Origin: Armatimonadota bacterium
GTDB lineage: Bacteria > Armatimonadota > UBA5829 > DTJY01
Direction: 5' to 3'
NCBI GenBank assembly: GCA_963663705.1
Contig: OY760504.1
Location: forward strand, 2,632,063-2,696,062
Length of the DNA stretch: 64,000 nt
Part shown: positions 6,747-56,246 of the stretch, piece by piece
Layout of the letters: every line of letters starts with the position of its first letter
Numbering within the stretch: position 1 is the first letter of the stretch
Made by a program: the position numbers and the translations under genes
The notes under the pieces: generated by a model
What the model was told of the DNA's origin: nothing
Seen by the model: the letters and a program-made list of their open reading frames with translations, nothing else
Database searches by the model: none

Positions 6747-7071
6747 ATTTACTGATGTTACGCAGAAATACAGATAACTATTCAGGATCGGGACAATCAT
6801 ATCCGGTCGCACTTCATGGGCTTGTCTCCATACCGGAGGAACGAATATCAGCCTGCAATTTCTTCAATACAAAGAAATTCATGACTCATTATTTCTTGCT
6901 CCGATCATTCAACTCGGTATCATGGCGAAAAGAAGTTGGTGAGTCAGCCAGTATCAGTCCTCTATCGATAAGGGAGTGTTAGTGTTATTGTACACTGCTC
7001 TGGGTAAAGAGGAGAAATGGTCTTGCCTTATAAGCCAAATTATGCAGAATATGGGAAATATTATGATAAAT

Positions 7072-23568: not shown

Positions 23569-24510
23569 ATGAGAAACACAATGAAACTCGCAGTCGTTCT
23601 ATCTCTAGTTGCATCCGTTGGATGCGCCAGCATTGCCTTGGCGGGGACTCCCACCAAGATATGGGAAGAAAGCAGCCCATGGGTGGCAGGGAATGTTTAC
23701 TATGGTGACGTAGTAAATGATGTCTACTACGCAGGACAGATTGATTCCGGTGTGTTGAGCTACACCGCAGCGCAGACCGCTGGTACTGCTCTTGTGAACA
23801 GCTATCAATACGGTGTGGCTGCAGGTACCAAGTCTGCAACAAAGATCGGGGACTCTGTCTATTTCGGAGGTGTCGCATCCGCGACCGACAGCATCAAACG
23901 ACTCGACTCTTGGAATGCAGTGACTACCATGACTACCAGCACTGGTGCTCCTGACGCAATAGTTACAGACGGAACCTATATTTACGCTAACGAATACCCC
24001 TCCGGCAACAGGAATATTGTCCGCAGATACAGCATCAGCGGTGCGAATCTTACAGCCGATTGGTCCATCGCGACAGGCGCAACCAGGATAAGAGGAGTCA
24101 GCTACTATAACGGTAAAGTCTACGCAGCAGACGGTACAAATGGTATATATGAGCTGAACGCAAGCGACGGCAGCAATGCTACAAAGATCATAAGCTGGAG
24201 TGGTCGCACAGGTTATCATGCTGCTCGCAGTGGCAACACGATTTTCGCGACAGGAGATAATGGCAGCCTTTATCAGTATACCCTGAGTGGAGGCACTTGG
24301 AATCTGACTGATACCACTGACCTCGGAATGGGTGCTCTCTATGGCATCGGCGTAAACAGCGCCGGTACAGGTTTGTGGGTAAGCGCTGCTAACAACAAGG
24401 TAGCTTATTTTAGCACTGGTGCCCCTGTTCCTGAGCCCTCAAGCATATTGGCAATGGCAAGTGGCTTGATCGGCCTCGTTGGATTTGGCATCAGGCGAAA
24501 AATAGCGTAG
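23569..24510 (+). CDS. Secreted PEP-CTERM-anchored repeat protein.
   Basis: Signal peptide MRNTMKLAVVLSLVASVGCASIALA. Internal YY/NG-rich beta-propeller-like repeats. C-terminus GAPVPEPSSILAMASGLIGLVGFGIRRKIA is the PEP-CTERM sorting motif. Confidence 0.75.
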   Translation: MRNTMKLAVVLSLVASVGCASIALAGTPTKIWEESSPWVAGNVYYGDVVNDVYYAGQIDSGVLSYTAAQTAGTALVNSYQYGVAAGTKSATKIGDSVYFGGVASATDSIKRLDSWNAVTTMTTSTGAPDAIVTDGTYIYANEYPSGNRNIVRRYSISGANLTADWSIATGATRIRGVSYYNGKVYAADGTNGIYELNASDGSNATKIISWSGRTGYHAARSGNTIFATGDNGSLYQYTLSGGTWNLTDTTDLGMGALYGIGVNSAGTGLWVSAANNKVAYFSTGAPVPEPSSILAMASGLIGLVGFGIRRKIA

Positions 24511-24694: not shown

Positions 24695-24971
24695 GGCTCT
24701 ATAAGCTTTCTTGAGGGTGAATCTGATTCGCCCTCACCCCAACCCTCTCCCGATTTCGGGCGAGGGGGGATGCCGCTTATCCCGAGTAGCCCACAGGGCA
24801 TATCGAGGGACAGTACATGTCTGCCAGGCTTCGGCAGCGGCGTCGTCGACTCTGCAACCGAAGCATCAACACACCCGTGAAGGGTGTGCCGACTTCGTGT
24901 TTTTGTTGCCGCGAATTTATTCGCACGGTTGTTGGAACACTACCGCTATCCACAAACTTTCTCATAGAGCC
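24695..24971 (+). repeat. MITE-like structured repeat, copy B (reference copy, 277 bp).
   Basis: TIRs GGCTCTATAAGC...CTCATAGAGCC. Dense internal hairpins, for example ccctctcccgatttcgggcgagggg and gcgaatttattcgc. The same element occurs at 6449-6746 (inverted), 39676-39994 and 42351-42649. Confidence 0.8.
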
Positions 24972-25296: not shown

Positions 25297-26445
25297 TTAA
25301 ACGCCGGATTGGGCCGGGGCTTTTTCTTCGCACAGGTTGTAATCTACGCGTCGGATGACGGGTACCGGCAGTATGTATATCCTCCCGGAGATGGCCTCCA
25401 CGCCTTTCTCCATGGCCTCGAAGGCAGTTTCTGCCGCTATCTGGCCTGCCCGCGAGAAATCCGGGCTGGTGGTGTGGAAATTGGGCCGGAAGATGCGTCC
25501 GTGTGGGAGGTTATCGAACCCTACCATGCAGAGGTCTTTGGGGACGCTTATGTCCATCTCCCTGGCTATCGATATGGTTCGTATCACCGCGTTGTCCTCC
25601 GTGCAGATCACGGCGGTGGGGCGGCTGGCGGCGTTTTGCCATTGCATCAGATATCGCGTTATATTCGTCTCTTCCGGAGAGAGCGGGTAGGGTATGTTCC
25701 AGATGTCGTCCTCAGCCACCGTCAGACCGACGCTCGCCATGGCGTCGCAGTAGCCGCGGAACCGCTCCATGTTGGAACGCAGGTGGTGGTGGGAACCCTC
25801 AGCCAGCATGTCACTGCGCATAAAGGCGATCCGTTTGTGACCCTCCGAGATGGTGAGCCGGGTCATGTCATAACCGGCTCTGTAGTTGTCGAAGAGTACC
25901 ATCGGTCTGTGCTGGTTTGGGTATGCTATATCGACCAGGATTATCGGGAAATCCTGCAATTCGGTTTTGAGGTAGTCGTTTTCGAACTGTTCATCATTGC
26001 GCGTGAAGCTTGGCGTGACTATCACTGCCTGGCAGCCTGATTGCGCCAGACGCAGAACCTGGGTGCGCTCTTCATCATAGTCGTACCGACTGGATGTGAC
26101 CGTTACCTGGTACCCTTTGTTCTTGGCGACCAGTTCGATCCCCCTGTATACTTCCATGTTTATATGGTCGCCGCTGGCCGGACCGATGTACCCTATGAGC
26201 GCGTTGCCAGTGGGTTCGGTGGCCTGCGCGCGGTCGGCTATGTAGATGCCGCTTCCCTGACGCTTGACAATGGCCCCATAGCCCTCAAGGATATCGAGCG
26301 CTTTCCTGACTGTGCTGGATGATGCCTGGTATCTATCGGCAAGCGCTTTGACGGTAGGCATGCGATCACCCTGTGCAGAAGTGCCGTTCTCGATGAAATC
26401 CTGCATTATGGCTTTTGCAATGTTGTCCGAAAGTATCCCGCCCAT
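25297..26445 (-). CDS. Hybrid GntR-HTH/LacI-type sugar-binding transcriptional regulator, paralogue of 20410-21552.
   Basis: MGGILSDNIAKAIMQDF...GDRMPTVKALADRYQASSSTVRKALDILEGYGAIVKRQGSGIYIA, about 75% identical to the paralogue. Start set at ATG 26445 (RBS AAGGA), matching the paralogue N-terminus. Confidence 0.8.
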   Translation of the reverse strand: MGGILSDNIAKAIMQDFIENGTSAQGDRMPTVKALADRYQASSSTVRKALDILEGYGAIVKRQGSGIYIADRAQATEPTGNALIGYIGPASGDHINMEVYRGIELVAKNKGYQVTVTSSRYDYDEERTQVLRLAQSGCQAVIVTPSFTRNDEQFENDYLKTELQDFPIILVDIAYPNQHRPMVLFDNYRAGYDMTRLTISEGHKRIAFMRSDMLAEGSHHHLRSNMERFRGYCDAMASVGLTVAEDDIWNIPYPLSPEETNITRYLMQWQNAASRPTAVICTEDNAVIRTISIAREMDISVPKDLCMVGFDNLPHGRIFRPNFHTTSPDFSRAGQIAAETAFEAMEKGVEAISGRIYILPVPVIRRVDYNLCEEKAPAQSGV

Positions 26446-26492
26446 TGACGCATCCTTTAACACAATGTAACACTATGTTGCAAGCTTCACGT

Positions 26493-26739: not shown

Positions 26740-26843
26740 GCGCTTGTACAGGAAATTAGGTTACATTGAGCGCGGCGTGGAGCATATCTTCCTGGTGCCC
26801 TTGTGGAAATGGATTTTACAAATATGAAAAGGTGTACAAGATA

Positions 26844-27506
26844 ATGAAGTGTCCGATTTACTCGACTGATGAAAGATGTAAGCGGCATGGTTTTACATTG
26901 ATCGAGCTGTTAGTTGTTATAGCCATCATAGCTATACTGGCTGCTATCCTCTTCCCGGTTTTCGCCAAGGCTCGTGAAAAGGCCCGGCAGACCACCTGCG
27001 CCAGTAACATGAAGCAGATCGGCACAGCGCTGATGATGTATGTGCAGGATTACGACGAAACCATGCCCTATGGAGATGTATATGCTCTCAACAGCTACTA
27101 TGACGTGTGGACGGTGCTTCAGCCCTACATCAAGAACTGGAATGTCTACGCATGCCCCAGCGACTCTCTGAAAAACTGTGTAAGCCTTGCAGCTGCGAGC
27201 GGTAAGTGGCCTGCCTCCTGGGAAAGCGTGCAGCTCAGTTATGGTTACAACTATGTAAATGAAGGTGATACCCTGGCGCAATTCACCGCACCGTCCGACA
27301 CCTGCGTATTCGCAGAGATGATCGAGCGGCCCTACTTCTATCAGCAGGGTAACACGCTTTCCGACGGCTCCGTAGGCGTCGGCTACACGGATGCTCCCGC
27401 CCGCCTGGCTTCCCGTCACAGTGATGGGATGAATATGTGCTTCTACGATGGTCATGTCAAGTGGGTCAAATCAACAAATGTTGCCAATGTGCGAGCCACT
27501 CCGTAG
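26844..27506 (+). CDS. Prepilin-type N-terminal cleavage/methylation domain protein, DUF1559 / H-X9-DG family.
   Basis: [49 protein letters not shown] and C-terminal [16 protein letters not shown]. The ORF-track start at 26766 would leave an implausibly long leader. Confidence 0.8.
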
Positions 27507-30106: not shown

Positions 30107-30757
30107 ATGAAAAAGAGAACAGGATTTACACTGATTGAGCTGCTAGTTGTTATTGCTATAATTGCAATATTAGCTGCTATACTATTCCCTGTATTTGCAA
30201 AAGCCCGTGAAAAGGGCCGTCAGGCGAGTTGCCAGAGTAACTTGAAACAACTTGGTATGGCTGTGGTTATGTATGTTCAGGATTACGAGGCTTACCCCAT
30301 TATGGATGGGAATTATTCGGATGGGACCTACTTCTATTGGCTGAATGAACTCGATTCGTACATCAAGAACGCGAAAGTAAGTGTTTGCCCTACGCTCAAT
30401 CAGGCGTACAGCTACGGTTACAACGGGTACATGCTTGGAGACACGCGCGATCTGACCAGTCGTGGCTGGTACAATGGACTTGCGACCGATTCCAGCTTGA
30501 AATCGCCTGCTGATACCGTGGTCTTGTGCGATACGGATCAGTATTGCCGCTCAAATTGTATCTATCCCACGATGATTGCCGGGTATAACCCGCCTTCGTC
30601 TCAAGGTAGTAACACCGGCTGCGTAGGCGACTATCACAGCGGTGGCGCGAACCTGGCCTTTGCGGACGGTCATGTCAAATGGATGAAGAGAACCGCCTTG
30701 AGCCCCACCTGGGGCAGTGGGGTAGGCGATACGGTCAATATCTGGGACCGAGAATAG
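30107..30757 (+). CDS. Prepilin-type DUF1559 / H-X9-DG protein.
   Basis: [39 protein letters not shown] and C-terminal [16 protein letters not shown]. Shares a roughly 100-nt conserved upstream leader with the next gene. Confidence 0.85.
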
Positions 30758-30903: not shown

Positions 30904-31653
30904 ATGAGAAAGAGAACAGGATTCACACTAATTGAGCTGCTAGTTGTTATAGCTATAATAGCCATCTTGGCAGCTATACTATTCCCTGTTTTTGCCAAAG
31001 CCCGTGAAAAGGCACGGCAGATCACTTGCCTATCGAACCTCAAACAGTTAGGCGTGGCTACCATGATGTACATGCAGGATTACGACGAAGTCTTCCCTCC
31101 CTGCGTGATGTCGAGTAATCAGTGCCCGCTCGATGGCGACTTTTGGCCGGTATGGGATGATGGCAATGGTAACAACTTTTATTATTTCCAAGCTGGGCTT
31201 TATCCTTATATAAAGGGCAACCACTATCATAAAGATACTGTTTTTGTCTGTCCTAGCCAGGCCAACACAAGCGATGCAAATGCCTGGACGAGTGGATACG
31301 GTCTGAACACTACGTTGTGCGGTCGTATACCCTGGGGCGAAACATGCAGGAGCCTGGGCTCCGTAACCAGCCCGGCGAGTACATATCTCATCTATGACTC
31401 CTCTTGCCCCGGTTGCGGTTTCGTGAACTGGTCGTCGCCGAATAGCGCTTACTACTTCCCTGGTGAGGGGGCATACAATGGTGTGTCTGCTCCGACCAGC
31501 GACCCAAGCTATTCCACACCCCGACATAGTGGGGGAATCAATGTCGCCTTTGCCGACGGTCATGCAAAATGGATTCAGTTGCAGACACTCGGACAGCAGT
31601 GCATCGATGCCGGCAACAACGTAAGTGGAAATGCCTGGGGACAAGGGTATTGA
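30904..31653 (+). CDS. Prepilin-type DUF1559 / H-X9-DG protein, near-identical paralogue of 19143-19898.
   Basis: [15 protein letters not shown]...[42 protein letters not shown]. About 95% amino-acid identity to the copy at 19143-19898 on the opposite strand. Confidence 0.85.
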
Positions 31654-39675: not shown

Positions 39676-39994
39676 GGCACTATAAGCTTTTTTGTGGGTG
39701 AATCTGATTAGGCCCTCACCCCAACCCTCTCCCGATTTCGGGCGAGGGGGGATACCGCTTATCCCGAGTAGCCCACAGGGCATATCGAGGGACGGTACAT
39801 GTCTACCAGGCTTCGGCAGCGGCGTCTTCAGGAATTCAATAATGTAGCCGCAGGCTTTACGCTGCGATCTACGCGCCCATAAAGGGTGCGCCTACATCTA
39901 GTCGGCGCAGGGCGACTTAGTGTTTTTGTTGCCGCGAATTTATTCGCACGGTTGTTGGAACACTGTCGATATCCACAAACTTTCTCATAGAGCC
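39676..39994 (+). repeat. MITE-like structured repeat, copy C (319 bp, the most diverged internal segment).
   Basis: TIRs GGCACTATAAGC...CTCATAGAGCC. Shares the 5' 150 bp and the 3' 80 bp with copies B and D. Confidence 0.75.
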
Positions 39995-42350: not shown

Positions 42351-42649
42351 GGCTCTATAAGCTTTCTTGTGGGTGAATCTGATTCGCCCTCACCCCTACC
42401 CCTCTCCCGATTTCGGGCGAGGGGGGATGCCGCTTATCCCGAGTAGCCCACAGGGCATATCGAGGGACGGTACATGTCTGCCAGGCTTCGGCAGCGGCGT
42501 CTTCGACTCTGCAACCGAAGCATCAACATACCCGTGAAGGGTGTGCATACACGAAGTCGGCGCAGGCCGATTTAGTGTTTTTGTTGCCGCGAATTTATTC
42601 GCACGGTTGTTGGAACACTACCTCTATCCACAAACTTTCTCATAGAGCC
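42351..42649 (+). repeat. MITE-like structured repeat, copy D (299 bp).
   Basis: TIRs GGCTCTATAAGC...CTCATAGAGCC. Near-identical to copy B. Confidence 0.8.
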
Positions 42650-42712
42650 TTATTTTTACTTGACAGCCGAAGATTCCGGTGTTAAGATAACAACTTGATT
42701 TTCGAGGGGAAT

Positions 42713-45334: not shown

Positions 45335-45931
45335 TCAGATGGCGGAATTTGAATGATCGCAGATAAAACTAAATGTCTCAACGGTTGGTGGGATTTCATT
45401 CCGGTTTAGCGAGCTTTTATCCAACCTTCCGCCGTGACGTGAGACGAAGAGATAATTATGTCTACATTCGGGCCGGAGTTCCATCCAGTCCTTAATCGCA
45501 TCGTATGCACTGGAGTTAAGAGGAATAAGTCGCATCTTATTTCCCTTCCCCTTCGTCACCTGCATTACGCTATTTTCCAAATCTATGTCTTCCAGCTTGA
45601 GATCGAGCAGTTCCTGCCTGCGGACACCGGTATGTATGAGCACTGACATAATCGCTCTGTTACGGAATGCCTGGTTGATAGATCTGCCCTGCTCGGAAGC
45701 GGAGATCAGAGCTTCCATCTCTACGGTGGTAAGACAAATGGGTACTTTGTATTCCTTCTTTGGTGTAGGGATTCGTCGAAGTGGAGAACGGTCGATATAC
45801 TCCGCATCCACAAGGTAATTCCACATGGATTTCAGGCTGTTAACCTTTCGGCGTATATAGGCCGACTTATAGTCGCTCCCATTCAAGTATGCCAGGTATT
45901 GCCGGATAACGGGAGTGGTGATGGATTCCAT
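45335..45931 (-). pseudogene. Truncated tyrosine recombinase (phage-integrase / XerD-like) lacking the N-terminal ~50 aa and the C-terminal catalytic H-x-x-R...Y region.
   Basis: Core-binding domain VIRQYLAYL...SLKSMWNYL. Catalytic-domain start RAIMSVLIHTGVRRQELLDLKLEDIDLENSVMQVTKGKGNKMRLIPL. Ends in non-homologous sequence before the HxxR and Tyr. Confidence 0.6.
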
Positions 45932-46155
45932 TTCATGCGGAATGCCCCGCTCACCCAGGGCTTATGTGCCTACTCCAAGACCATTTTGCCAACATAATTC
46001 TGTCTGGCCGAGACATAACCCGTTACATAATGTGAAAAAGCGTGGGGTTATGTCTCGGTGAGCAAAAATATTCAGCTACGACAGAACCCCCTGTTATTTT
46101 CCACTGACATCCCACATGATCGATGGCCTAATTCTAGTTTTAGGAGATAGGCACT

Positions 46156-46281
46156 ATGTTATTAACACCATTGGCCGAAGAGTTTTATGCCTACTTGAAG
46201 AATGAACGAGGATCAAGCGAACTGACTATCAGTTCATACAAGTATGATTTTCGCCGATTCTTGAGGTTATATTGGGACTAA
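46156..46281 (+). pseudogene. Isolated N-terminal 41-aa fragment of a tyrosine recombinase, on the strand opposite to the larger fragment.
   Basis: MLLTPLAEEFYAYLKNERGSSELTISSYKYDFRRFLRLYWD* matches the XerD N-terminus (LxxFLxxLxxERgLSxNTLxAYRRDL). RBS AGGAGATAG. Its stop lies inside the direct repeat at 46265. Confidence 0.5.
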
Positions 46282-46990
46282 CCCGACGTTTTTGTTGCGT
46301 ATTACTTTGTGTTGTAGGTACATAACCGTGTAGAATATCAAGTTTGACCCTGGTTGGCAGGACTTGGGCGTGAGTATGATGGCATACATAACAGTCCCAT
46401 GCAAGCATCTTGACCCAGGGCTTTTACATATTAACGGCTTGTAGCAAATTCGTCTAATGATATTATATCTATCACGAGGAAATAATACTACACATATCAA
46501 ACACCACATAAAACCGGTGAGGAGTCTGATATGGAAGAATACGAAAACCTGATTGCACACTTGAAGCTAATCCCTGACATGAGGGCCGAGAGATGCAAGA
46601 AGCACAAACTCATAGATGTGCTGTTCATCGCTTTGTGAACTATTCGTTCAGATGGCGAGGATTCAGTGATATTATCGACTTTGCAACGCGTCGAGAGAAT
46701 GGTTGCGAAAGTATATTGAGCTCCCTTGTGGCATACCATAGTATTACACCTTACGAAGGGTATTTCAAATACTCGATCCAAAGGCCCTTAAGGAAGGATT
46801 GATGAGTTGGATGGAGAGCCTGAGGAGTGCAACTTCGGGGCAAGTGATAGCTCTGGATGTTACGATGAACGAGGATATGAATCGAATCCGAAAAGATAAC
46901 GCCCCGGAGAATCTGGCGGTTATAAGAAGAATAGCCGTAAGTATGGTAAATCAGGGTCGGCCATAGATAACTGTAAACATAATGCAAAAG
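46265..46990 (+). mobile_element. Degenerate ISAs1-family IS remnant: left-end repeat, transposase N-terminus (frameshifted) and C-terminal tail. The DDE core is deleted.
   Basis: 46530-46640 encodes MEEYENLIAHLKLIPDMRAERCKKHKLIDVLFIAL*, an ISAs1 Tnp N-terminus. The next frame continues NYSFRWRGFSDIIDF. 46803-46970 encodes ...VTMNEDMNRIRKDNAPENLAVIRRIAVSMVNQ, an ISAs1 Tnp C-terminus. Confidence 0.55.
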
Positions 46991-47077
46991 CACTGATTTC
47001 CTCTTGACTGGATACCGGCTTTGATGTAAAATGACTAAACGTGATTGATATTTTGAGTAAACGTGAGTTAAAATCCG

Positions 47078-47857
47078 ATGCTTAATTCAACTAGGCAACA
47101 GAAACTTTATGCGCTCCTTCGGCAGCGCGGTGAACTCCGACTGCGTGATGTGATGTCGGAATTGGGGGTTGCGCGGGCGACTGCACAGCGTGACCTCGAT
47201 CAATTGAGCCAACAGCCGGGGGTGCAGCGTACCCATGGTGGGGCAATGCTGGCCGAGACACAAAACGGATTTGCTGCCATTCGTCTGGGCGACCGTCAGC
47301 AAGTCACTTCGGAGGAGAAGAAGCAGATTGCCAGGACGGCGGTTACATTATTCAACGCAGATGCGGCGAGTCTATACATCGATGCTGGAACTACTACCAT
47401 AGCCTTCACCAAGGAGTTGGTTTTGTCTGGATGGCGTCCGGTATGGGTGGTCACGAACTGCTGGCATGTGGCCGAACAGCTGAGCCTTGCCGGGATACGG
47501 CATGAGCTTCTAGGCGGAGAGGTCGATTGCCGAAGTCTGGCTATTTCCGGCCCGACTGCAGAAAACAGCGTGGCCGCATACCATTTTGATTGGGCGATTC
47601 TGTCGGCCGATGCCGTCACGGCGACCGGGTCTGTCAGAGTGGCCCGACCGCCTGAAGCTTCTCTGAAACGTGCGGCGGCATTGGCGAGCACGCAGAAGAT
47701 GCTCCTGGCCGATGCCGGCAAGTTCGGGCGCGATTCGCACGTCGAGGCCCTGAAGTTGGGCGACTTCGACATCTGGGTGACGGAGCGGCAAGACCGCTCC
47801 GTCGAGCAGGTCTGCGCAGACAGCGGCGTGCAGTTGGTTACATCTGCCAACGAATAG
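47078..47857 (+). CDS. DeoR-family transcriptional regulator (HTH plus DeoR C-terminal sugar-phosphate sensor).
   Basis: N-terminal RQQKLYALLRQRGELRLRDVMSELGVARATAQRDLDQL (DeoR HTH). C-terminal DeoR-C fold. Confidence 0.85.
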   Translation: MLNSTRQQKLYALLRQRGELRLRDVMSELGVARATAQRDLDQLSQQPGVQRTHGGAMLAETQNGFAAIRLGDRQQVTSEEKKQIARTAVTLFNADAASLYIDAGTTTIAFTKELVLSGWRPVWVVTNCWHVAEQLSLAGIRHELLGGEVDCRSLAISGPTAENSVAAYHFDWAILSADAVTATGSVRVARPPEASLKRAAALASTQKMLLADAGKFGRDSHVEALKLGDFDIWVTERQDRSVEQVCADSGVQLVTSANE

Positions 47858-47867
47858 AGGAGATGCA

Positions 47868-49289
47868 GTGAAATCGATCTTACTCGGATTGGATATCGGC
47901 ACTACCAAGCTGTGTGCGGTTGCCGTAGAGTCGGAGACCGGCAGACTTGTTGCTGTGGAATCTGCTCCCAATGACGCACACATACCGACAGAGGCTGGCG
48001 GGGCCGAACAAGACCCTGCCGTAGTCATGATGCGCATTCAGGAGGTGGCGCGACGCCTTAGCACACGACCGGAGCTCGATGGGTACTCCATCGACGGTCT
48101 TGGTGTCACAGGGCAGATGCACGGCGTGCTCCTGATAGATGCGGATGGCAGTCCGGTTTCCCCTCTGGTCTCCTGGCAGGATCAGCGTGGTCATCGCAAA
48201 TCCACCAGGTGCGGCCGTACATATGTCGAGGAACTCCGCGAGCGGATTCAAACCGAGGATACAGGATGCGAACCGTCGACAGGTTACGGCGCCGTCACAC
48301 TCCTCCGCCTCAAAGACGAAGACCTGATACCGGCGAACTCCCGTGCGCTTACCATTCATGATTTCGTCGTGATGCAGCTTTGTGATGTAGCCGCCACTGA
48401 TCCGACCGATGCCGCGAGTTGGGGGATTTTCGATGTGCGCGACGGCCAACGGTGGCTGCCATCAGCGTTAGTAAGTTTTCCCTTCATGAGGGATCTACTG
48501 CCAAGCGTTCTCGGTACGGGCACTGTCGCGGGAAGGATAAGTTCGAGTGCAGCACGAGTGACAGGATTTCCTCACGGCTTGCCGGTCGCCGTCGCGTTGG
48601 GAGACAACCAGGCATCGTTTTTGGGGAGTGTTCCTTCCGCCCACGAGTCGCTGCTCCTGAATCTGGGGACGGGCGGGCAGATATCCGTGCCTATCGATCG
48701 GTTTGCTTCACTTCCTTTACTGGAGACACGACCATTACTGCCGGGACTCTGGCTGCTCGTCGGCGCTAGTCTCTGCGGGGGGCGGGCATACCAGATTCTC
48801 GCAGACTTCTTTGCCGATGTCGGACGTGAACTCTTCGGCTGCGATGTCGGCGATGCACTATACGAGCGGATGAACGTGCTTGCGGATGAGGCTACAGAGG
48901 ACTGCGATCACCTGTGCGCCCATACGCTATTTGAGGGTACCCGCAAAGACCCAACCATCCGGGGTGACTTCATCGGCATCAGTTCGCAGAATTTCACTCC
49001 TGCCAATCTGACACGCGCCTGCATTGCAGGCATGGTCGATGAACTGGTCTCCATGTATGCGCAGGCGGAGGATGCCGGAGCGAATATCGGCACCGTCGTC
49101 GGAGCAGGGAATGCTATTCGACGCAATCCCATAGTCCGTTATGAGATTGAGAGACGGCTTTCGATGCCATTGTACCTCTCGTCACGTACCGAGGAGGCTG
49201 CGGTTGGAGCGGCTCTGGTCGGCGGAGTGGCTGCCGGAGTCTATTCTGACTGGCGGATGGCTGTGTCTCACTCGGCCGCAAAAGAATGA
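47868..49289 (+). CDS. FGGY-family carbohydrate kinase, a divergent xylulokinase-like member.
   Basis: GTG start 10 nt after AGGAGA. ILLGLDIGTTKLCAVAVE and GVTGQMHGVLLID motifs. C-terminal GAGNAIRRN. Confidence 0.7.
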   Translation: MKSILLGLDIGTTKLCAVAVESETGRLVAVESAPNDAHIPTEAGGAEQDPAVVMMRIQEVARRLSTRPELDGYSIDGLGVTGQMHGVLLIDADGSPVSPLVSWQDQRGHRKSTRCGRTYVEELRERIQTEDTGCEPSTGYGAVTLLRLKDEDLIPANSRALTIHDFVVMQLCDVAATDPTDAASWGIFDVRDGQRWLPSALVSFPFMRDLLPSVLGTGTVAGRISSSAARVTGFPHGLPVAVALGDNQASFLGSVPSAHESLLLNLGTGGQISVPIDRFASLPLLETRPLLPGLWLLVGASLCGGRAYQILADFFADVGRELFGCDVGDALYERMNVLADEATEDCDHLCAHTLFEGTRKDPTIRGDFIGISSQNFTPANLTRACIAGMVDELVSMYAQAEDAGANIGTVVGAGNAIRRNPIVRYEIERRLSMPLYLSSRTEEAAVGAALVGGVAAGVYSDWRMAVSHSAAKE

Positions 49290-49319
49290 CTTGGTAGATT
49301 ACCGGAAGGAGCTCGGATC

Positions 49320-51758
49320 ATGGTTCGCATCGTTGAGAAAACCGTGGGATTTGACCCAAAACGCCTGGCACAGCAGTTACTCTCTGTGCAGTCGCAGAAT
49401 CAACACACTACACGCCTGGATGGCTGGTTCCTTACTATGGAGATTCGCATGCGGGCGCTCGCGGTGTTGCGCAAGACCGCTACCGATTTGCCGAACATCA
49501 TAGTGCAGGCCAGGCTTTTTGCGGCAGTCTGTGAGCAACTACCTCTCACCATCCGAGACGATGAAGTCTTTGCCGGAACGCAGGACGATGCCTTTGCTCG
49601 TACCTATGCGTTGATCAACCCCGAGTTCAAAGTCGAAACCTTCGCAGGATACTGCGACCCGATGGCGGTCTACGGCGACATCACTTGCGCACCTGAGCTC
49701 GGTTTCACGGCCGAACGTATCAAGGCGGTCCGCGACTTTTGGGCTATGGAGCCGTTTGCCAGTGTACTCAAGGCAGCCTACGCAGAGACTGGTGATGAGT
49801 TGTCTGAGGTTGCATACTTTGTCGAGCAGGTTACCGGTCACACAATCTGCGATTTCCGTCCGGCTCTCCAGAACGGACTGGTGCCGCTCATCGAGGAAGC
49901 GCAGTCCAGAGCCCGGGAAACCAGCGGAAGCCAGAAGGATTTCTATACGGCCGCGGAGATCTCACTCACGGCTGTGCTTGCGCTGGGTGACCGCTATGCG
50001 AGGTTGGCCGCAGATATGGCGAGCGGTGAGACCGATCCGCTCCGCAAACATGAACTCAAACGAATTGCCGAGACATGTGGAAGAGTGCTGCATTCCGGCG
50101 CGAGTTCGCTCTACGATGCCATCCAGGCATTCATGCTTCTGTGGATGGGAATGACCCTCGAACAAGCACCAAATCCCTATGCGTTCAGCGTCGGAAACCT
50201 CGATCGGATTCTGCAGCCCTACTTCGCACAGGACGCAATCGATCGGGAAGTCGCCATCGAACTGACACGCCATTTGCTCGCACTCTTTAACGTCGGAGAC
50301 CGAAACTGGGCGATCAGCCAGAACATCATGGTCGGCGGTCGTGACGAGAACGGCAAAGACCTGACCTGCGATATGACCACCATCGTGCTCGCGGCATTCT
50401 ATCGCAGCAACTACCCGCAGCCGGCACTCTCGGTAAAACTCCATTCGCGAACTCCCGATGAGGTCTATTCCGCACTCGCACCGTTTTTCACCACGCCGGG
50501 GAGTCTGACACCGAGCTTCTTCAATGACGACGTGCTCTTCCCTATTCTTACGAAGAAAGGAATCGCCCGCGAAGACCTGCCTCTGTATTCCATCGCCGGA
50601 TGCCAGGAGCCGTTGATCATGGGCAAGGAATCGGGAAACACTACCAATAGCTGGCTGAATCTTGGGAAGATCCTGGAACTGACCATCCACGGCGGCAAGA
50701 GCGCTATCACGGGGAGGCGGATCGGCCTATCATACGAAGAACTCGGTCTGAATCCCGATGAGCCCGTCAAAGATATGGAGCAGGTCAAGACGGCGTTCTG
50801 GAAGCAGTTGGACCATATGCTGCCGAGAATGGAAAAGGCTGCCAATGCGTGCACTAAGGCGCTCTCTCTCCTCCCGGTGCCGTTCCTCTCGTGCTTCATG
50901 GGAGGGTTTGAGAGCGGTATCGATATGCGGGATAACACCGCTCAGGGGACGAAGTATAATGCATCCGGATGCCTAATTCACGGACTGAGCGTAGTCGCGG
51001 ATAGTCTGTCTGCTATTGCCCATCTTCAGGGAACCGCGCCCGATCAGTTGGCAGATCTACCGAGGGCACTGCTCGCCAAATTCGAGGGATTTGACGCACT
51101 GCGCTCGCGTTGTCTTGCAGCACCCAAGTATGGGAACCGTCTGGGGCTGCCGGAGAAGCTAGCCGCGGAGATCGCCGAGGGAACGTCGAGCCGGGTGACG
51201 GCGTTGACTAACCCTTGGGGAAACCATTTTCTCCCTGACTGGAGCACTCCCAGCACACATTTGCTGTATGGTTACTGGGTCGGCGCTACTCCGGATGGGA
51301 GAATGGCAAGACAGATGCTTGGATACGGCATCGACCCCACGGCAGGTATGGCTACACACGGACTTCCTCCACGTATACTCAGCATGCATGCGCTGCCCTA
51401 CGAGGCATTCCTCGGAGGTTATGCCAGCCACATCGGGTTGGAACCGGCTATGGTCCGAGCCGCCGAAGATGGCAAGGGTTTCGTCGATACAATTCGCGGC
51501 TGCGTCATCGATCCGCTCTTCGGGTTCAACGGCGAGGGTATGAATGGTGGGTATTACGTCTACTTCAACGTCGACTCTGCGGAGCATCTCAGAAAGATAC
51601 TGGCGAACCCGATGGAACTCGTGCCCAGCGGAATCTACATTATGCGCATACACGGGACTTTCGTGAACTTCCTCGATCTCTCACCGGCGATCCAGGAAGA
51701 TATAATCACTCGGCTCGATGAGGAATCGACCAGCTTTTCAAAGACTTGCTTTGCATGA
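49320..51758 (+). CDS. Glycyl radical enzyme (pyruvate formate-lyase fold), eliminase/dehydratase-type, with non-canonical motifs.
   Basis: GRE hallmarks ATPDGRMARQMLGYGIDPTAGMATHG and NASGCLIHGLSVVADSL. Active-site loop SIAGCQEPLIMGKE (Cys428). C-terminal glycyl-radical segment IYIMRIHGTFVNFLDLSPAIQEDIITR aligns to [26 protein letters not shown] (Gly779). Confidence 0.8.
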   Translation: MVRIVEKTVGFDPKRLAQQLLSVQSQNQHTTRLDGWFLTMEIRMRALAVLRKTATDLPNIIVQARLFAAVCEQLPLTIRDDEVFAGTQDDAFARTYALINPEFKVETFAGYCDPMAVYGDITCAPELGFTAERIKAVRDFWAMEPFASVLKAAYAETGDELSEVAYFVEQVTGHTICDFRPALQNGLVPLIEEAQSRARETSGSQKDFYTAAEISLTAVLALGDRYARLAADMASGETDPLRKHELKRIAETCGRVLHSGASSLYDAIQAFMLLWMGMTLEQAPNPYAFSVGNLDRILQPYFAQDAIDREVAIELTRHLLALFNVGDRNWAISQNIMVGGRDENGKDLTCDMTTIVLAAFYRSNYPQPALSVKLHSRTPDEVYSALAPFFTTPGSLTPSFFNDDVLFPILTKKGIAREDLPLYSIAGCQEPLIMGKESGNTTNSWLNLGKILELTIHGGKSAITGRRIGLSYEELGLNPDEPVKDMEQVKTAFWKQLDHMLPRMEKAANACTKALSLLPVPFLSCFMGGFESGIDMRDNTAQGTKYNASGCLIHGLSVVADSLSAIAHLQGTAPDQLADLPRALLAKFEGFDALRSRCLAAPKYGNRLGLPEKLAAEIAEGTSSRVTALTNPWGNHFLPDWSTPSTHLLYGYWVGATPDGRMARQMLGYGIDPTAGMATHGLPPRILSMHALPYEAFLGGYASHIGLEPAMVRAAEDGKGFVDTIRGCVIDPLFGFNGEGMNGGYYVYFNVDSAEHLRKILANPMELVPSGIYIMRIHGTFVNFLDLSPAIQEDIITRLDEESTSFSKTCFA

Positions 51759-52648
51759 GTGACATCGCTGTTACCATATTCGATATAGGTTTCACCTATA
51801 ACATCGACGGCCCGGGACAACGGATGGTCGTGTACTTCAAGGGCTGCAATCTCCGCTGTCCCTGGTGCGCGTCGCCGGAGTCTATCGCTGCCGCTTCGGA
51901 AGTCCTGCTGTATCCTGACCGCGCACCCTCTCAGGTATCGCTGATCGACGCCTGTCCCTACGGTGCAGTGAGCGCGATAGGCGGAGAAGTATTGCGTGAT
52001 ACGGACAGATGCCGATTATGCGAACTGCATCCGTGTACCGATTCCGGCACACCTGCCTTTGAGCTGTGCGGCCGAACGGTTTCGGTGAGTGAGATTATCA
52101 GTCAAGCCGAGGAGTACCGGCCATTCTTTGGAAGCAATGGGGGAATAACGATCGGTGGAGGGGAGTCGACCTGTCAGTTTCAGGCTCTCGAAGGGATTCT
52201 GGCTGAACTCCACAAACGCTCTATCGATACGGCTTTGGAGACAAACGGAACACATCTCAGGTTGCCGGAGATTTTCCCACTGCTGGACATGCTGCTGATC
52301 GATCTCAAGCATCCCTTATCCGAGCAGTGCAGAGAGATAGTCGGTCTCGGAAACGAGGTAACTCTGGCCAATATCGCCGCCAGGTGGAAACACGGTGGCG
52401 ATATGGTGGTACGCATACCTCTTGTTCCTGGATACAATTCTGATGAGGCCGTTCTCTACGAATTCGGTAAGGTCCTGGCATCGATTGGGCCGTTGTGCGT
52501 TGAGATATTGCCTTTTCACCGACGAGGGGAAATAAAGTGGCGGTCACTTGGGCTTAGAATGCCTGCCGAATCAGCGAAGGAACCCTCCCGGCATTTGCTA
52601 GGCCAGGCTTATGATATTCTACAGAGTTATGGATTACATGTGAAATGA
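51755..52648 (+). CDS. Glycyl-radical-enzyme activating enzyme (radical SAM).
   Basis: CxxxCxxC motif GCNLRCPWC. SAM-binding GGITIGGGES. Cys-rich insert CPYGAVSA...CRLCELHPC. Its ATG overlaps the GRE stop as ATGA, indicating translational coupling. Confidence 0.8.
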   Translation: MSDIAVTIFDIGFTYNIDGPGQRMVVYFKGCNLRCPWCASPESIAAASEVLLYPDRAPSQVSLIDACPYGAVSAIGGEVLRDTDRCRLCELHPCTDSGTPAFELCGRTVSVSEIISQAEEYRPFFGSNGGITIGGGESTCQFQALEGILAELHKRSIDTALETNGTHLRLPEIFPLLDMLLIDLKHPLSEQCREIVGLGNEVTLANIAARWKHGGDMVVRIPLVPGYNSDEAVLYEFGKVLASIGPLCVEILPFHRRGEIKWRSLGLRMPAESAKEPSRHLLGQAYDILQSYGLHVK

Positions 52649-52721
52649 AATACGCGATCTTCTTCGAAAGATGACCGGCTCTTCGAGTGCGCAAGCCGGG
52701 CTATGCAGGATGTAATTTAGA

Positions 52722-53534
52722 ATGTACCAGATTAGACAGTTCTTTTTTCCATACCCGATAGATACCCCGGAGCTGAGTATACATGCGGTCGGAATACGGG
52801 AAGCGGTGCCTCCCACGGTTACCCACAGGCCCGGCAGCACAGGGGACTGGCTCTTCATGTTCCTCTATGAGCCGAATTTCGTGGACGGCTATGGTGAGCA
52901 GCCGGGGAATACGCTGATAGTCTGGGATCCCGAGCACGGGCATTGTTTTGGCCGGCAGGATATTCCGTGGACACACTCCTGGCTTCATTGCGATGGCAGT
53001 TGCTTGGCTCCGATGCTCGCAGAGTGCGCCATTCCATTGAACGAGCCCTTGCGGATAAGTGCTCCTGAGATGATGGATCATTACCTGGTGCAGATACACC
53101 GGGAGGCTGCATTCTTTTCGTCCCCGGACCCACGCATAGCACGAAACATCCTGCAAAACTGGATCTATGAGATCGGCCGAGATATCCACGGAAGAGACGA
53201 AGCGCCGGCTGTACCCCCTGAGTACCTGGCTGCCAAGCGCCATATTTCCGAGCATTTTGACGAACCGACGAGGCTTGCTGACCTCGCTGAAATCGCCCAT
53301 GTCTCCGTGCCCCATTTCTGCAACCTGTTCAAGCGCTATTTTAATCAATCGCCGATAAGTATGCTGATAGAACACAGGATGCGCTATGCTGCTTATCTGC
53401 TGAGAGATGTTAGCTTATCGATCACTGAGATAGCTGTCATGGTCGGGTATCGGGACCTCTATCAGTTCTCCAAATTGTTTAGTAACCGCTATCACATGTC
53501 GCCTCGGCTCATGCGTGAGCGGCTCATGAGATGA
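52722..53534 (+). CDS. AraC-family transcriptional regulator.
   Basis: C-terminal HTH pair LADLAEIAHVSVPHFCNLFKRYFNQSPISMLIEHRMRYAAYLLRDVSLSITEIAVMVGYRDLYQFSKLFSNRYHMSPRLMRER. Confidence 0.8.
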   Translation: MYQIRQFFFPYPIDTPELSIHAVGIREAVPPTVTHRPGSTGDWLFMFLYEPNFVDGYGEQPGNTLIVWDPEHGHCFGRQDIPWTHSWLHCDGSCLAPMLAECAIPLNEPLRISAPEMMDHYLVQIHREAAFFSSPDPRIARNILQNWIYEIGRDIHGRDEAPAVPPEYLAAKRHISEHFDEPTRLADLAEIAHVSVPHFCNLFKRYFNQSPISMLIEHRMRYAAYLLRDVSLSITEIAVMVGYRDLYQFSKLFSNRYHMSPRLMRERLMR

Positions 53535-53610
53535 TTCCAACTGATGTGACTGGACATCGGCGGGTATGTTTTGATGGCCCGGACGAAATCCGGGCCCATT
53601 TGCGCGTGTG

Positions 53611-54726
53611 CTATATCACTTCGAGGTAGTCTCTGTCCGGTAGCACCGGGAACGCACCGTGTGGCTCGGACTGATACCAGTATGCGACGGACGATATATC
53701 ATCCCGCAAAGGGAGATACCGGCCTTCACTATGCCAGCCCAGACCTTGTACTGTCAGTTTCAGGTCTTGCTTGAAGCGGATCGGATCCATGATGTGGAAG
53801 CGATACATGAGGTGACGATCGCCGGCTTTCCCAAATGATGTTCCTACAGGATAACCCAGGAACGGGGCCGAGAAGTTTTCGCCGAAGCCCCACGCACCGC
53901 CGATGTAGTCCTCTGTGCCGGTTGCGACGATTGTTGGAAACTCCCCGTCACCATCCAGGAAGAACTTGGTCTCTCCTTCACCCCACCAGCCGTTGTTGTT
54001 CTGCTGCCAGGCGAGGGATGTGCCGACGTAGTGCCCCTGGCCGTGCACACCATCGAGGATGGTATAGACTTCCTTGTAAGGGAGCGGGTTTGTACGTCGG
54101 AACTGAGCGTGAAAACGAGCATCCTCGTCTGTCACCTCAGTTATGGCGTAGGTGATGTTGTACACGATCTCCTCGTCCTTTACGGGATTTCTGTTTTCGA
54201 TGGTTATACGGGCGTGCTTGCCGAAAGGCATGGGGAAATAACAGTTCATTGCTCTGGTAGGATTGACATTTATGGGCAACGACAGGATGGGAGTTTGTAT
54301 TCCAAGGCCGTTACAGAAGAAGTCGGCTATGGGAGATTCGACACTGGGAGTCTCTTCGTTATCCCAGTACATACGCAGTATCAGGTCGCGCATAAACACC
54401 GGCTCCTGACTAAACGTGAGGAAGAGGTGCTGAATGCAGCCGGGACCGTCTACGTCCATTATTGTGGTGGTTGTTCCGGCAGGGAATATTGGGTGTATGC
54501 GAACCTTCCACCCGCGTCCCAAATCACGAGCCGCGTGTTCAGCAATATCCTTATCCGTGAACCATGTCTGCCCTATACGCTCAACATCGGGTGGCGGCGT
54601 TGTCGTAATTTCCGCCATGCATGCGCGTCCCTTCTCTCCGTATACGTTCTCGGCGTTGATCGATCGTGTCTCCGCGTTGGAGAGTCGAAATATGTTACCC
54701 AACCCCATTCCCATTCCTGAAAACAT
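53611..54726 (-). CDS. DUF2961 / GH172-like protein, a putative glycoside hydrolase.
   Basis: Motifs RMYWDNEETPSVESPIADFFCNG, YFPMPF and GEGETKFFLDGDGEFPTIVATGTEDYIGGAWGF resemble the DUF2961 family. Recalled from memory, not searched. Confidence 0.4.
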   Translation of the reverse strand: MFSGMGMGLGNIFRLSNAETRSINAENVYGEKGRACMAEITTTPPPDVERIGQTWFTDKDIAEHAARDLGRGWKVRIHPIFPAGTTTTIMDVDGPGCIQHLFLTFSQEPVFMRDLILRMYWDNEETPSVESPIADFFCNGLGIQTPILSLPINVNPTRAMNCYFPMPFGKHARITIENRNPVKDEEIVYNITYAITEVTDEDARFHAQFRRTNPLPYKEVYTILDGVHGQGHYVGTSLAWQQNNNGWWGEGETKFFLDGDGEFPTIVATGTEDYIGGAWGFGENFSAPFLGYPVGTSFGKAGDRHLMYRFHIMDPIRFKQDLKLTVQGLGWHSEGRYLPLRDDISSVAYWYQSEPHGAFPVLPDRDYLEVI

Positions 54727-54789
54727 GTTTAAAGCTCCTGCAAGTTAGTGTTACTGACAATATTGTACCTCTTACATTGAGCCTTTGGA

Positions 54790-54936
54790 ATGGCGGATGT
54801 TAAGCAGTATTTGTGGAATCTTAAGGTTGTATGTGGAAGTGTTGCCCAAGTTGCGAGAGATCTTGGGGTAAATGCAGAGGCTCTACGCCGCTGGGTAAGG
54901 CAAGCCGGATGGCGGCGTGGGCATTACTCCAGATGA
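54790..54936 (+). pseudogene. IS3-family transposase OrfA N-terminal HTH fragment (48 aa).
   Basis: MADVKQYLWNLKVVCGSVAQVARDLGVNAEALRRWVRQAGWRRGHYSR* contains the IS3/IS911 OrfA HTH SVAxVARxLGVNxxxLxRWV. Confidence 0.5.
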
Positions 54937-55099
54937 GCCTGGGGACGCCTAAAACACGAAGAGCAGAGAGCACGCAGAGATGCCACTTTCCACTGTGATC
55001 TTGCCCTGAATTTTCGGGCACCGATTACCTATGCCGCATACGCGGCTAGTTGGAACTGAAACTCGAACTCAGCCGGGGTTGGAGTAGGCACATGAGCCG

Positions 55100-55133
55100 G
55101 GTTATATTGGGACAACCCGACGTTATTGTTACC
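55100..55133 (+). repeat. Direct-repeat copy of the motif at 46265-46299. Patchy homology extends about 300 bp downstream (agggcttttRcatattaac at 46411 and 55393).
   Basis: ggttatattgggacaacccgacgttattgtt versus ggttatattgggactaacccgacgtttttgtt, about 30/33 identical. Confidence 0.55.
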
Positions 55134-55920
55134 TTTTGTGCTGGTACTACAGGACAGATTCCAGGTTATTTTCTCTGTTGTCATCTTTGTGTAGTCGATA
55201 ACCATAAAATTCTGCCACGTTTTTTGATGCAATGCAACGCCAACTAAAATGCTGAACTGATCCATGCTTTGCATCACGTTGCGTGCACTCGATATTGCGA
55301 TTCCGGAAGGCGAAGATACGAAACTCGCCTGATAGTATCACCACTAAGCAGACATCTTCCAGTGCTAACCTTGAGGCAATTCGCATCGTTGCAGGGCTTT
55401 TGCATATTAACTCTTTATTATCGCTTACCACCTGGCAATTCATAAGCGGCATCCGCTGATATAACCTGGAGATACGTCGATCTACTGCGGATGATTAATG
55501 CCTGCTGGGCAATTATTAGCTGTATGCCTACAGGTAACTGACCTCGGCCGCTGCAAAGCAGGCATTTTTTGCGTTAAAATTGCGTTTTTTGGAAGAGAAT
55601 CTGTACTTATCAATATGGGTGTATCCTCAAAATGAAAAGGCCCCGACAAAACGGTTTGTTGACAAATCTGGCAATTGCCGGTATACTGCATCCAATGCGC
55701 TGAAACGTTTCGCGCACGTCGATTTTGCGTCGGCTGTAGATGTGCATCAGCTTCGAGGAGTGTCCAACGATTTTGGAGATGGTCGTCGTAGATTGCAGCT
55801 CAGGGTAAAGATAATCCGCATCCCATATTCCATGCAATGCGAAATAACCATCTGGCTACCAGACCGGAAGATCACTGGATTATATATCATCGCATATCCA
55901 AAGAAGAAACTTAAGACGGT

Positions 55921-56246
55921 TTGATGAGTAATCTGGCTGACTGTCTGCACAAGTGGCTTGACGACGAGTGTCCGACCAGCGCTCTGCTTGCCCGTGAGTT
56001 GGGAATTCATATGCCTTACCAGCTGGAAGTGGTTGGATTTGACAATCTGAGGGTCGGCAAGTCATGCATCCCGCCGTTTTCTACCACGAACCTGATTTCA
56101 CCTATGCCGGAAAGATCGCCGCCAGAATGGCTATCAAGCAGGTAGAATGCATTCAAACAACCGTTCCTATCATACGGGTGCTTCCGGTTCCGCTGAAGGT
56201 ACCAAGCTCAGACGAGGTCGAAAGAATTACCGAATGCGTGCGATAA
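55921..56246 (+). pseudogene. Frameshifted C-terminal remnant of a LacI-type sugar-binding domain, probably a decayed GntR/LacI-hybrid regulator paralogue.
   Basis: LEVVGFDNLRVGKSCIPPFSTTNLISPMPERS and, in a second frame, YHEPDFTYAGKIAARMAIKQVECIQTTVPIIRVLPVPLKVPSSDE. These parallel MVGFDNLPHGRIFRPTFHTTGPDFARAGQIAAETAFEAIDKG...ILPVPII of the intact regulators. Confidence 0.45.

Follow-up and report, generated by a model that had tools for sequence, protein, structure and literature searches.

How did an operon built around a glycyl radical enzyme (GRE) come to lie between two copies of a short direct repeat, with a ruined integrase at one end and transposase fragments close to both copies? 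The question is raised by a 64-kb stretch of contig OY760504.1 (the window, by which we mean the whole stretch analysed; coordinates are positions in it, and L-numbers denote loci that were compared with it). An earlier note on this DNA had taken the enclosed genes for plausible horizontally acquired cargo, and the repeats either for attachment-site-like (att-like) duplications or for the ends of two decayed copies of an insertion sequence (IS). We argue here that the repeats abut copies of the 3' end of rnpB, the gene for RNase P RNA, a site targeted by an integrase family that recurs across loci, and that integrative islands of this type once stood in tandem here and have left a dead fragment in the window, a reading to which we give a probability of about 0.65. 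Directly observed are the sequence relationships themselves, an inversion that split the integrase gene and the association of the integrase family with rnpB.

Direct repeats and a core copied from rnpB

The repeat reported earlier, of about 35 bp and in the same orientation at both ends, stood up to scrutiny. The sequence GGTTATATTGGGAC(T)AACCCGACGTT(T/A)TTGTT occurs at 46265-46297 and 55100-55131 (30/32 identical, one indel) and forms a unique pair in the window, each version being found once where 0 are expected (100 dinucleotide shuffles). Gapped alignment extends the homology to about 50 nt. The patchy similarity said to continue past the repeats is also present, as a second stretch of about 35 nt (46401-46435 and 55376-55411), but the motif once placed at 46411 really lies at 46416 and the patch by itself is borderline (score 20.5 vs a shuffle mean of 11.2 and a shuffle maximum of 21.5). 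Among 185,579 GTDB representative genomes, the repeat pattern TATATTGGGACN{0,1}AACCCGACG has zero matches.

This repeat of about 33 bp is the core-proximal portion of what we call the P arm, i.e. the island-arm side of an att junction, and not the recombination core. The core directly adjoins it at the right locus, where a 25-nt block (55079-55103) reproduces the last 25 nt of rnpB at locus L003 (L003 3996-4020) in 24 of 25 positions and is the sole match in the window at ≤3 mismatches (0 expected). It is dif-like in shape, consisting of an arm, a 6-bp GC spacer (CCCGGC) and an arm. The left core is revealed by a 20-nt inverted repeat that the earlier note had not recorded (45959-45978 and 55079-55098, 19/20). 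The half of the core found there lies 287 bp from the left copy of the direct repeat, in the opposite orientation, and reads in the rnpB sense on the + strand after the inversion described below; the initial two bases of the left P-arm copy, GG, are the other half of the core spacer. From 45962 to 46000 the window is identical in 39/39 nt to L003 4004-4042, which spans the rnpB end and the P' arm, and a contig of the Logan short-read assembly of the same organism ends at 45976 because this 39-nt exact repeat is shared with the L003 rnpB locus. In all copies, identity with rnpB starts within about 3 nt of one position and the core reads ...ATAA / CCCGGC / TTATG.... The elements concerned are the following.

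45959-45978, plus strand: left att core, right half only (GGCTTATGTGCCTACTCCAA), equal to the last ~17-20 nt of rnpB and matching 55079-55098 at 19/20
46265-46440, plus strand: left island P arm, with the repeat at 46265-46297, gapped homology to ~46321 and the patch at 46401-46435
55079-55103, minus strand: right att core, complete (AACCCGGCTCATGTGCCTACTCCAA), equal to the last 25 nt of rnpB (24/25 to L003)
55100-55480, plus strand: right island P arm, with the repeat at 55100-55131, gapped homology to ~55147 and the patch at 55376-55411; an inverted ATATAACC half-site lies at 55463-55470

Flipping the inversion back turns the two cores into a direct repeat of the target gene's 3' end, with 8.8 kb between the copies. 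Of the two origins that had been offered for the repeats, att-like duplication is the one borne out, the repeat abutting a 25-nt copy of the rnpB 3' end that is the target of this integrase family. The repeats are very probably rnpB-derived att junctions of that family.

An integrase gene split by a small inversion

Both recombinase fragments listed in the earlier note exist. The minus-strand open reading frame (ORF) 45335-45931 encodes a truncated tyrosine recombinase that matches positions 3-112 of the 172 of Pfam Phage_integrase, lacks its last ~80 aa, including the catalytic His/Arg/Tyr region, and continues through about 21 non-homologous codons to its stop, integrase homology ending near 45401, with the stop codon of the adjacent GH95-like gene (GH, glycoside hydrolase) some 70 bp away. 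The 41-aa N-terminal fragment on the plus strand (46156-46281) corresponds to residues 1-37, at 73% identity, of P0002, an intact paralog that is 72% identical to the window integrase and is recorded on the same 3.78-Mb contig. What had been overlooked is that the two fragments are complementary halves of one gene: in tblastn, P0002 residues 1-37 and 39-224 map to opposite strands and complement each other exactly. The joined protein aligns without gaps across the join with seven homologs and has a full Phage_int_SAM_1 match (profile positions 2-81 of 83), so that the rejoined gene carries both Phage_integrase and Phage_int_SAM_1 and the window copy is an integrase pseudogene.

The sequence as it stands gives two blastn high-scoring segment pairs on opposite strands with the paralog locus L003; flipping 45962-46266 yields a single colinear one of 854 bp at 70.7% identity. 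Since the halves are complementary and the flipped reconstruction is colinear with L003, an inversion of about 305 bp split the integrase gene. It comprises or separates the following pieces.

45401-45958, minus strand: integrase body (residues 39-224 of ~302 aa), 72% identical to P0002 by tblastn
45962-46266, strand not assigned: inverted segment of ~305 bp, with half the att core, the P' arm and integrase upstream region, and integrase codons 1-37
45979-46155, plus strand: P' arm and integrase upstream region, 82% identical over 125 nt to L003 4004-4127, which lies directly 3' of rnpB
46156-46266, plus strand: integrase N-terminal 37 codons (P0002 residues 1-37 by tblastn, 73%), inverted relative to the gene body

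When the outer flanks of the inversion are rejoined, the core reads AACC-GGCTTATG and lacks just one base of the right copy, which places one breakpoint inside the 6-bp core spacer. The other is at integrase codon 38. Strand exchange is expected in the spacer; a clean inversion catalysed by the integrase was nevertheless rejected, given that about 6 nt are missing at the junctions, and the event fits aberrant cleavage followed by repair, or plain illegitimate recombination. Its consequences are twofold. The integrase is dead twice over, through the deletion of ~80 C-terminal codons and through the splitting of its gene, and the GRE segment can no longer be excised core-to-core because the left core now consists of two half-sites 305 bp apart.

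The P' arm contains an inverted repeat, GAGACATAACCC...GGGTTATGTCTC (arms 45997-46021 and 46045-46069), with a 12-bp stem made of core-like half-sites. Analogous CATAACC/GGTTATG inverted repeats are found between rnpB and the integrase in L003 (~4050-4100), L004, L010 and L013, and a terminator-like hairpin followed by a T-run occupies this position in L014-L016. Such P'-arm inverted repeats may be accessory recombinase-binding sites or an operator.

An integrase family that sits at rnpB

Homologs of the window integrase (37-72% identical) were surveyed at 16 distinct loci from other samples, rnpB being called with Rfam model RF00010. At all 16 the homolog lies beside a full rnpB or its 3' fragment of about 25 nt, and at 15 of them this rnpB or fragment is 150-200 nt upstream of the homolog on the same strand. 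A full rnpB is found upstream of the integrase in L003, L004/5, L010/12, L013, L014, L015, L016 and L019; the full-length RF00010 genes share the strand of the integrase, stop 150-180 nt short of it and score as follows.

L003: 297 bits
L004: 279 bits
L005: 267 bits
L010: 286 bits
L013: 282 bits
L014: 275 bits
L015: 281 bits
L016: 287 bits
L019: 249 bits

Three sequences (L012, L018 and L023) begin within rnpB, the copies in L018 and L023 being partial ones at contig ends. An intact target gene thus abuts one end of the element in the 8 relative loci with full rnpB, and neither end in the window. Because the genes upstream of rnpB vary from locus to locus (NlpC/P60, aminotransferase, CdaA/YbbR), it is rnpB itself that is the conserved partner of the integrase. 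Another five loci (L017, L020, L021, L022 and L024/26) are without rnpB and have only the fragment (A)AC-[CT]CGGCT-TAT...ACTCC before the integrase, preceded by unrelated sequence. This P-core-P'-integrase layout, which is also that of the left locus of the window once un-inverted, is by standard island logic that of attP or of an internal junction of a tandem array, and to judge by sequence these metagenomic loci are compatible with attP on free elements. A more distant homolog (L027, 34% identity) lies beside a tRNA gene instead.

Two relatives contain whole islands. In L019, rnpB is accompanied by a direct repeat of its end (26/27) 9.4 kb downstream, and in L030 a 27-nt exact direct repeat recurs 6.3 kb apart with rnpB at one end. 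In the fetched flanks of L003, L004, L010, L015 and L018, attR was not found with up to 6 errors.

Behind the integrase next to rnpB, the relatives without exception encode a second tyrosine recombinase (311-370 aa) that is transcribed convergently (L003 5207-6319; L004 7968-9065; L010 10948-12030; L019 5183-6118), and this pairing suggests a two-recombinase (XerC/XerD-like), heteromeric system. The L010-L012 lineage also carries a Toprim primase and a DnaB-like helicase. By its profile scores the P0002 family is not housekeeping XerC/XerD, P0002 reaching 221 and 213 bits against TIGR02224 and TIGR02225, whose cutoffs are 335 and 330. IMG/VR holds no relatives of the integrase.

The rnpB loci have features of their own. 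The L019 gene (3283-3916) is 634 nt long and matches model positions 1-367, with about 270 nt extra inside a complete class-A RNase P RNA. A cyclic di-AMP riboswitch precedes the NlpC/P60 gene upstream of rnpB in L003 (2334-2465), L004 (5342-5471) and L010 (5785-5889).

The enclosed segment

Between the cores lie the genes that the earlier note had named (DeoR, FGGY kinase, GRE, activase, AraC and a DUF2961-like protein), and Pfam bears out each of them. Transposase remnants separate them from the att sequences.

46532-46966, plus strand: ISAs1-family transposase pseudogene (NF033564, 96.7 bits vs a cutoff of 70; PF13808 match)
47078-52648, plus strand: candidate cargo operon of DeoR (from 47078), FGGY kinase, GRE and activase (Pfam)
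47868-49289, plus strand: FGGY kinase (Pfam)
49320-51758, plus strand: glycyl radical enzyme, PFL-like (Pfam)
51746-52648, plus strand: radical-SAM activase (Pfam)
52722-53534, plus strand: AraC regulator (Pfam)
53611-54726, minus strand: GH172/DUF2961 protein (Pfam)
54790-54936, plus strand: transposase HTH_Tnp_1 fragment (PF01527, 26.7 bits, ~23 aa)

The ISAs1 remnant is the internally deleted element described before; it is also frameshifted, and its NF033564 score comes from a translation stitched across the frameshifts. On the right, a transposase helix-turn-helix fragment is indeed present, but with only about 23 aa it is no more than a possible IS3 OrfA: the best NCBIfam match is IS66 TnpA at 24 bits, below the cutoff of 74, and no OrfB is present.

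The AraC and GH172 genes lie outside the operon that is conserved in relatives. The FGGY-GRE-activase unit recurs, at 68-70% GRE amino acid identity, in L006 (7408-14442) and L008 (8540-13359), of which only L006 also has the DeoR gene with it; the two operons stand in differing, unrelated housekeeping contexts, that of L006 adjoining a mannose-6-phosphate-isomerase-like cupin. Among the Armatimonadota-like metagenome-assembled genomes that carry the operon (so called by the names of their nearest named homologs), GRE identity is 68-75%. The enzyme falls below every NCBIfam equivalog cutoff, the best match being the PFL2/glycerol dehydratase subfamily (273 bits vs 678). The DeoR, FGGY and GRE genes have the highest GC content of the window (0.56-0.59, for an average of 0.51), the L006 and L008 relatives reaching 0.58-0.61, and the GRE block is among the two most tetranucleotide-deviant in the window (z 2.2).

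Searches for the rest of an island, or for its empty site, came back with little. A tblastn of the window with the second recombinase, primase, helicase and other genes of L003, L010 and L019 gave only the known integrase pieces. The scan of GTDB representative genomes for GRE relatives produced nothing confirmable, so that the source species has no representative in that collection; the closest GRE contig (L094, 75%) is short and carries no att or integrase, and no close relative with an empty site was found in the searched collections, where the nearest homolog of the solute-binding protein (SBP) is 61% identical and has a different neighbourhood.

A proposed history of the locus

The mechanism of the family, as we infer it from the relatives and from the standard model of islands at tRNA and tmRNA genes, would run as follows: (i) the XerC/D-like tyrosine integrase would recombine attP with attB, with the second, convergent recombinase as its likely partner in the relatives, (ii) the attP core would copy the last ~25 nt of rnpB, and attB would be the same stretch of the chromosomal gene, (iii) integration would leave rnpB-core-P'-integrase at one end and P-core at the other and (iv) repeated integration would build tandem arrays with internal P-core-P' junctions.

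Read in this light, and from high to low coordinates, the window would present a P arm (55480->55104), a core (55103->55079), about 350 bp with the transposase scrap, then GH172, AraC, activase, GRE, FGGY and DeoR, the ISAs1 remnant, a second P arm (46440->46267), core, P' arm and truncated integrase, and then the GH95-like gene's stop codon. Between the cores, the 8.8 kb would make up a single island, stripped of its own recombinase module and still holding its cargo, and the integrase would belong to the next island of the tandem array. The earlier note, which had placed the integrase as the left bracket of the GRE segment, was thus right about the fragments but probably not about what they belong to. 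By cutting the left core into half-sites, the inversion would then have fixed the GRE segment in the chromosome.

What makes acquired cargo the most parsimonious account of the enclosed genes is that a P-core-P' junction in a chromosome arises only by tandem integration, which leads one to expect island DNA on its P side. The spacing between cores agrees with this, 8.8 kb lying within the size range of whole islands in relatives (6.3 and 9.4 kb). We conclude, a shade less firmly than for the array itself, that the enclosed genes probably were island cargo; the recombination chemistry and the travelling of the GRE operon as cargo are both what we infer. The att architecture and the recurrence of the operon in other contexts favour the proposal of the earlier note that these genes were acquired, for which the composition is only suggestive and an empty site was not found.

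Points against this history, and other explanations

Several observations weigh against the history proposed above. No rnpB in the window passes the Rfam gathering threshold, and the array is therefore not observed attached to its target; with cmscan at a permissive E-value, no partial rnpB was found in 45-57 kb either, the terminal 25 nt that are present being too short for the model. Neither the P arm nor the sequence to the left of the right core has a match in any compared locus, and the name P arm therefore rests on position beside the core; past its first ~50 nt, moreover, P-arm homology is patchy and of borderline significance. In L003 and L010 there is no attR within 10-11 kb. The inversion junctions, short of about 5 nt from the integrase gene and 1 nt from the core, are not what a clean conservative exchange would leave. 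No remnant of a recombinase, primase or other mobility gene was found between the cores by tblastn. The compositional comparison with the flanks that the earlier note had called for gives the GRE block the highest GC and a z of 2.2, but the deviation is modest, since 55.8-63.5 kb is equally deviant (z 2.4) and other genes of the window reach a GC of 0.56. Finally, IS debris occupies both joints between att sequences and cargo, because of which a rearrangement could have placed the genes there and their adjacency to the att sites may be secondary.

This last point is the starting place of the strongest alternative, which accepts the att and integrase remains as genuine but holds that the GRE cluster was resident, or borne by an IS, and came to stand between relocated att debris through IS-mediated rearrangement. 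Such a course of events is unlikely, though several observations speak for it. The IS remnants are exactly at both att/gene joints (46532-46966 and 54790-54936), the segment is without a mobility-gene remnant, the relatives' operon lies amid housekeeping genes with no integrase or IS nearby and the composition is only mildly deviant; the patch, moreover, is away from rnpB and has truncated genes at its edges, and large rearrangements are therefore certain. Against it stands the junction itself, a P-core-P' arrangement being made only by tandem integration, with island DNA expected on its P side. The core spacing of 8.8 kb is in the size range of the relatives' whole islands (6.3 and 9.4 kb), the IS remnants differ in family, so that no composite transposon is evident, and the operon has the highest GC in the window.

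Could the repeats instead be the ends of two decayed copies of one IS, and the whole segment a composite transposon? This was the second origin considered in the earlier note, and it is very improbable. Transposase fragments do lie near both copies, and the right P arm opens with GGTTATAT, 360 nt from which stands ATATAACC in inverted orientation. A composite transposon needs two copies of the same IS, however, and the two remnants, an ISAs1 element and an HTH_Tnp_1 fragment, are of different families; neither overlaps the repeat, and they are on opposite sides of the repeats, whatever consistent IS layout is assumed. The repeat borders directly on 25 nt copied from the rnpB 3' end and, at the left, on an integrase with homologs that are always found with this sequence; there is no further copy of the repeat in the window or in the 185,579 representative genomes.

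More improbable still is that the inverted 20-nt cores, or the 305-bp segment, form a live switch run in trans by P0002, flipping the GRE block or the 5' end of the integrase: for all that the cores (45959-45978 and 55079-55098) are inverted, 19/20 identical and 9.1 kb apart, that an intact paralog (72% identical) is encoded in the same 3.78-Mb genome and that a Logan contig breaks at 45976, the left core is a half-site whose other arm and half of the spacer are gone, the Logan assembly crosses 46266 and 55079-55103 in a single configuration 100% identical to the window, the 39-nt exact repeat in common with the rnpB locus accounts for the break and bases were lost at the junctions, unlike in a reversible conservative switch.

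Edges of the patch and other features of the window

The mobile-element patch, of ~10.4 kb (about 45398-55833), is bounded by truncated genes, i.e. the integrase at ~45401 and a regulator at ~55834.

55834-56195, plus strand: GntR/LacI-type regulator pseudogene, C-terminal third (tblastn, residues ~232-360, E 5e-10)

The regulator fragment is paralogous to the intact regulators with GntR-HTH and periplasmic-binding domains at 20410-21552 and 25297-26463, and lies upstream of an SBP-permease-permease-GH116 operon. Two Logan contigs (one run), reached by look-ups of the GRE and SBP proteins, are 100% identical to the window where compared; an exact-protein look-up of the GH95-like neighbour returned no record.

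A family of about 290 bp resembling miniature inverted-repeat transposable elements (MITE-like) has four intergenic copies in the 64 kb, with about 90% mutual identity, and a fifth in L003 that has an additional internal insert of ~150 bp. Its terminal inverted repeats are GGCTCTATAAGCTTTCTTGTGG...CCACAAACTTTCTCATAGAGCC, and 8-bp target-site duplications are visible (e.g. TAAAGAGG, CAGATATT, CAGTAAAT); the family has no Rfam match.

6450-6748, minus strand: MITE-like copy
24697-24970, plus strand: MITE-like copy
39677-39993, plus strand: MITE-like copy
42353-42657, plus strand: MITE-like copy
L003 14471-14914: MITE-like copy

Elsewhere the window encodes three prepilin-type N-methylation/DUF1559 proteins and a PEP-CTERM protein (26766-27506, 30107-30757, 30904-31653 and 23569-24510), with many glycoside hydrolases interspersed (GH2, GH38, GH95-like, GH116-like, GH123 and rhamnosidase-like). 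Together with the named nearest homologs, these point to an Armatimonadota-like polysaccharide degrader.

Comparison with known integrative elements

Islands at the 3' ends of tRNA and tmRNA genes place an integrase beside a stable-RNA gene and carry a copy of the gene's 3' end, with the result that the target is restored and a displaced piece of it shows where the far end lies; they typically have direct repeats of ~25 nt and form tandem arrays, and their cargo can be metabolic (Hudson et al. 2015, PMC4383910). The layout here is the same, but rnpB takes the place of tRNA and tmRNA genes as the target, the integrase resembles XerC/D (it has a Phage_int_SAM_1 N-domain and XerC/XerD as best NCBIfam matches, below cutoffs), the relatives add a second, convergent recombinase and the array in the window is detached from its target and dead. 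In Dehalococcoides, islands at ssrA (the tmRNA gene) stand in tandem, with direct repeats of the gene's 3' end, and carry reductive dehalogenase operons (McMurdie et al. 2011, PMC3146451). They share with the present case a single-copy stable-RNA target, the tandem arrangement and an anaerobic catabolic operon as (here putative) cargo, and differ in target gene and integrase lineage; the window holds a decayed fragment whose mobility is deduced from relatives. A third parallel is the phage phiEf11, whose attB lies inside ffs, the gene for 4.5S/signal recognition particle (SRP) RNA, and was published in 2025 as a novel non-coding-RNA att site (PMC12540744). Common to both are an identity core (27 nt in phiEf11) in a stable-RNA gene other than tRNA and an integrase gene close to attP. 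Unlike phiEf11, an Enterococcus phage studied by experimental lysogenisation, the family described here is documented by comparative evidence, is not phage-like and targets rnpB.

Xer recombination offers the last comparison. The dif site has 11-bp arms around a 6-bp spacer (...CATAA-N6-TTATG...), and elements that exploit it are known as integrative mobile elements exploiting Xer (IMEX). The core described here has the same shape (ATAA-CCCGGC-TTATG), and the recombinases are XerC/D-like, two of them in relatives. In contrast with IMEX, these elements have their own recombinases rather than host XerCD, their site is in rnpB rather than the dif of the terminus and P and P' arms lie beside the core.

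Significance

The locus itself is an ordinary dead island remnant. What it adds is an att target, rnpB, for an integrase family that recurs, and an inversion that split the core: an anonymous repeat becomes a defined recombination site that links the locus to a recognisable family of integrative elements. In the literature searched, neither rnpB nor RNase P RNA was found described as an att site, although an earlier description is possible. The broader proposal is tentative, and we would put the odds slightly against it in its full extent: an XerC/D-like integrase clade that is undescribed in the searchable literature, and that usually comes as convergent pairs, would occur in uncultured bacteria, among them Armatimonadota-like ones, would insert its islands at a dif-like palindrome within the final ~25 nt of rnpB, would build tandem arrays and could carry anaerobic operons such as the GRE cluster, and in the window an inversion through the core spacer would have destroyed both integrase and att site, fixing the cargo.

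The target classes of the TIGER/Islander resource are tRNA/tmRNA, CDS (coding sequence) or intergenic (PMC12424338). Detection tools confined to tRNA and tmRNA genes would not link the islands of this family to an RNA-gene target. If confirmed as a regular target, rnpB would join tRNA, tmRNA and ffs among the stable-RNA att sites, and the result argues that FGGY-GRE-activase, which has DeoR ahead of it here and in L006, passes from genome to genome as one operon. As a possible tool, the family would have in the 3' end of rnpB a compact and conserved attB, present once in nearly every bacterium.

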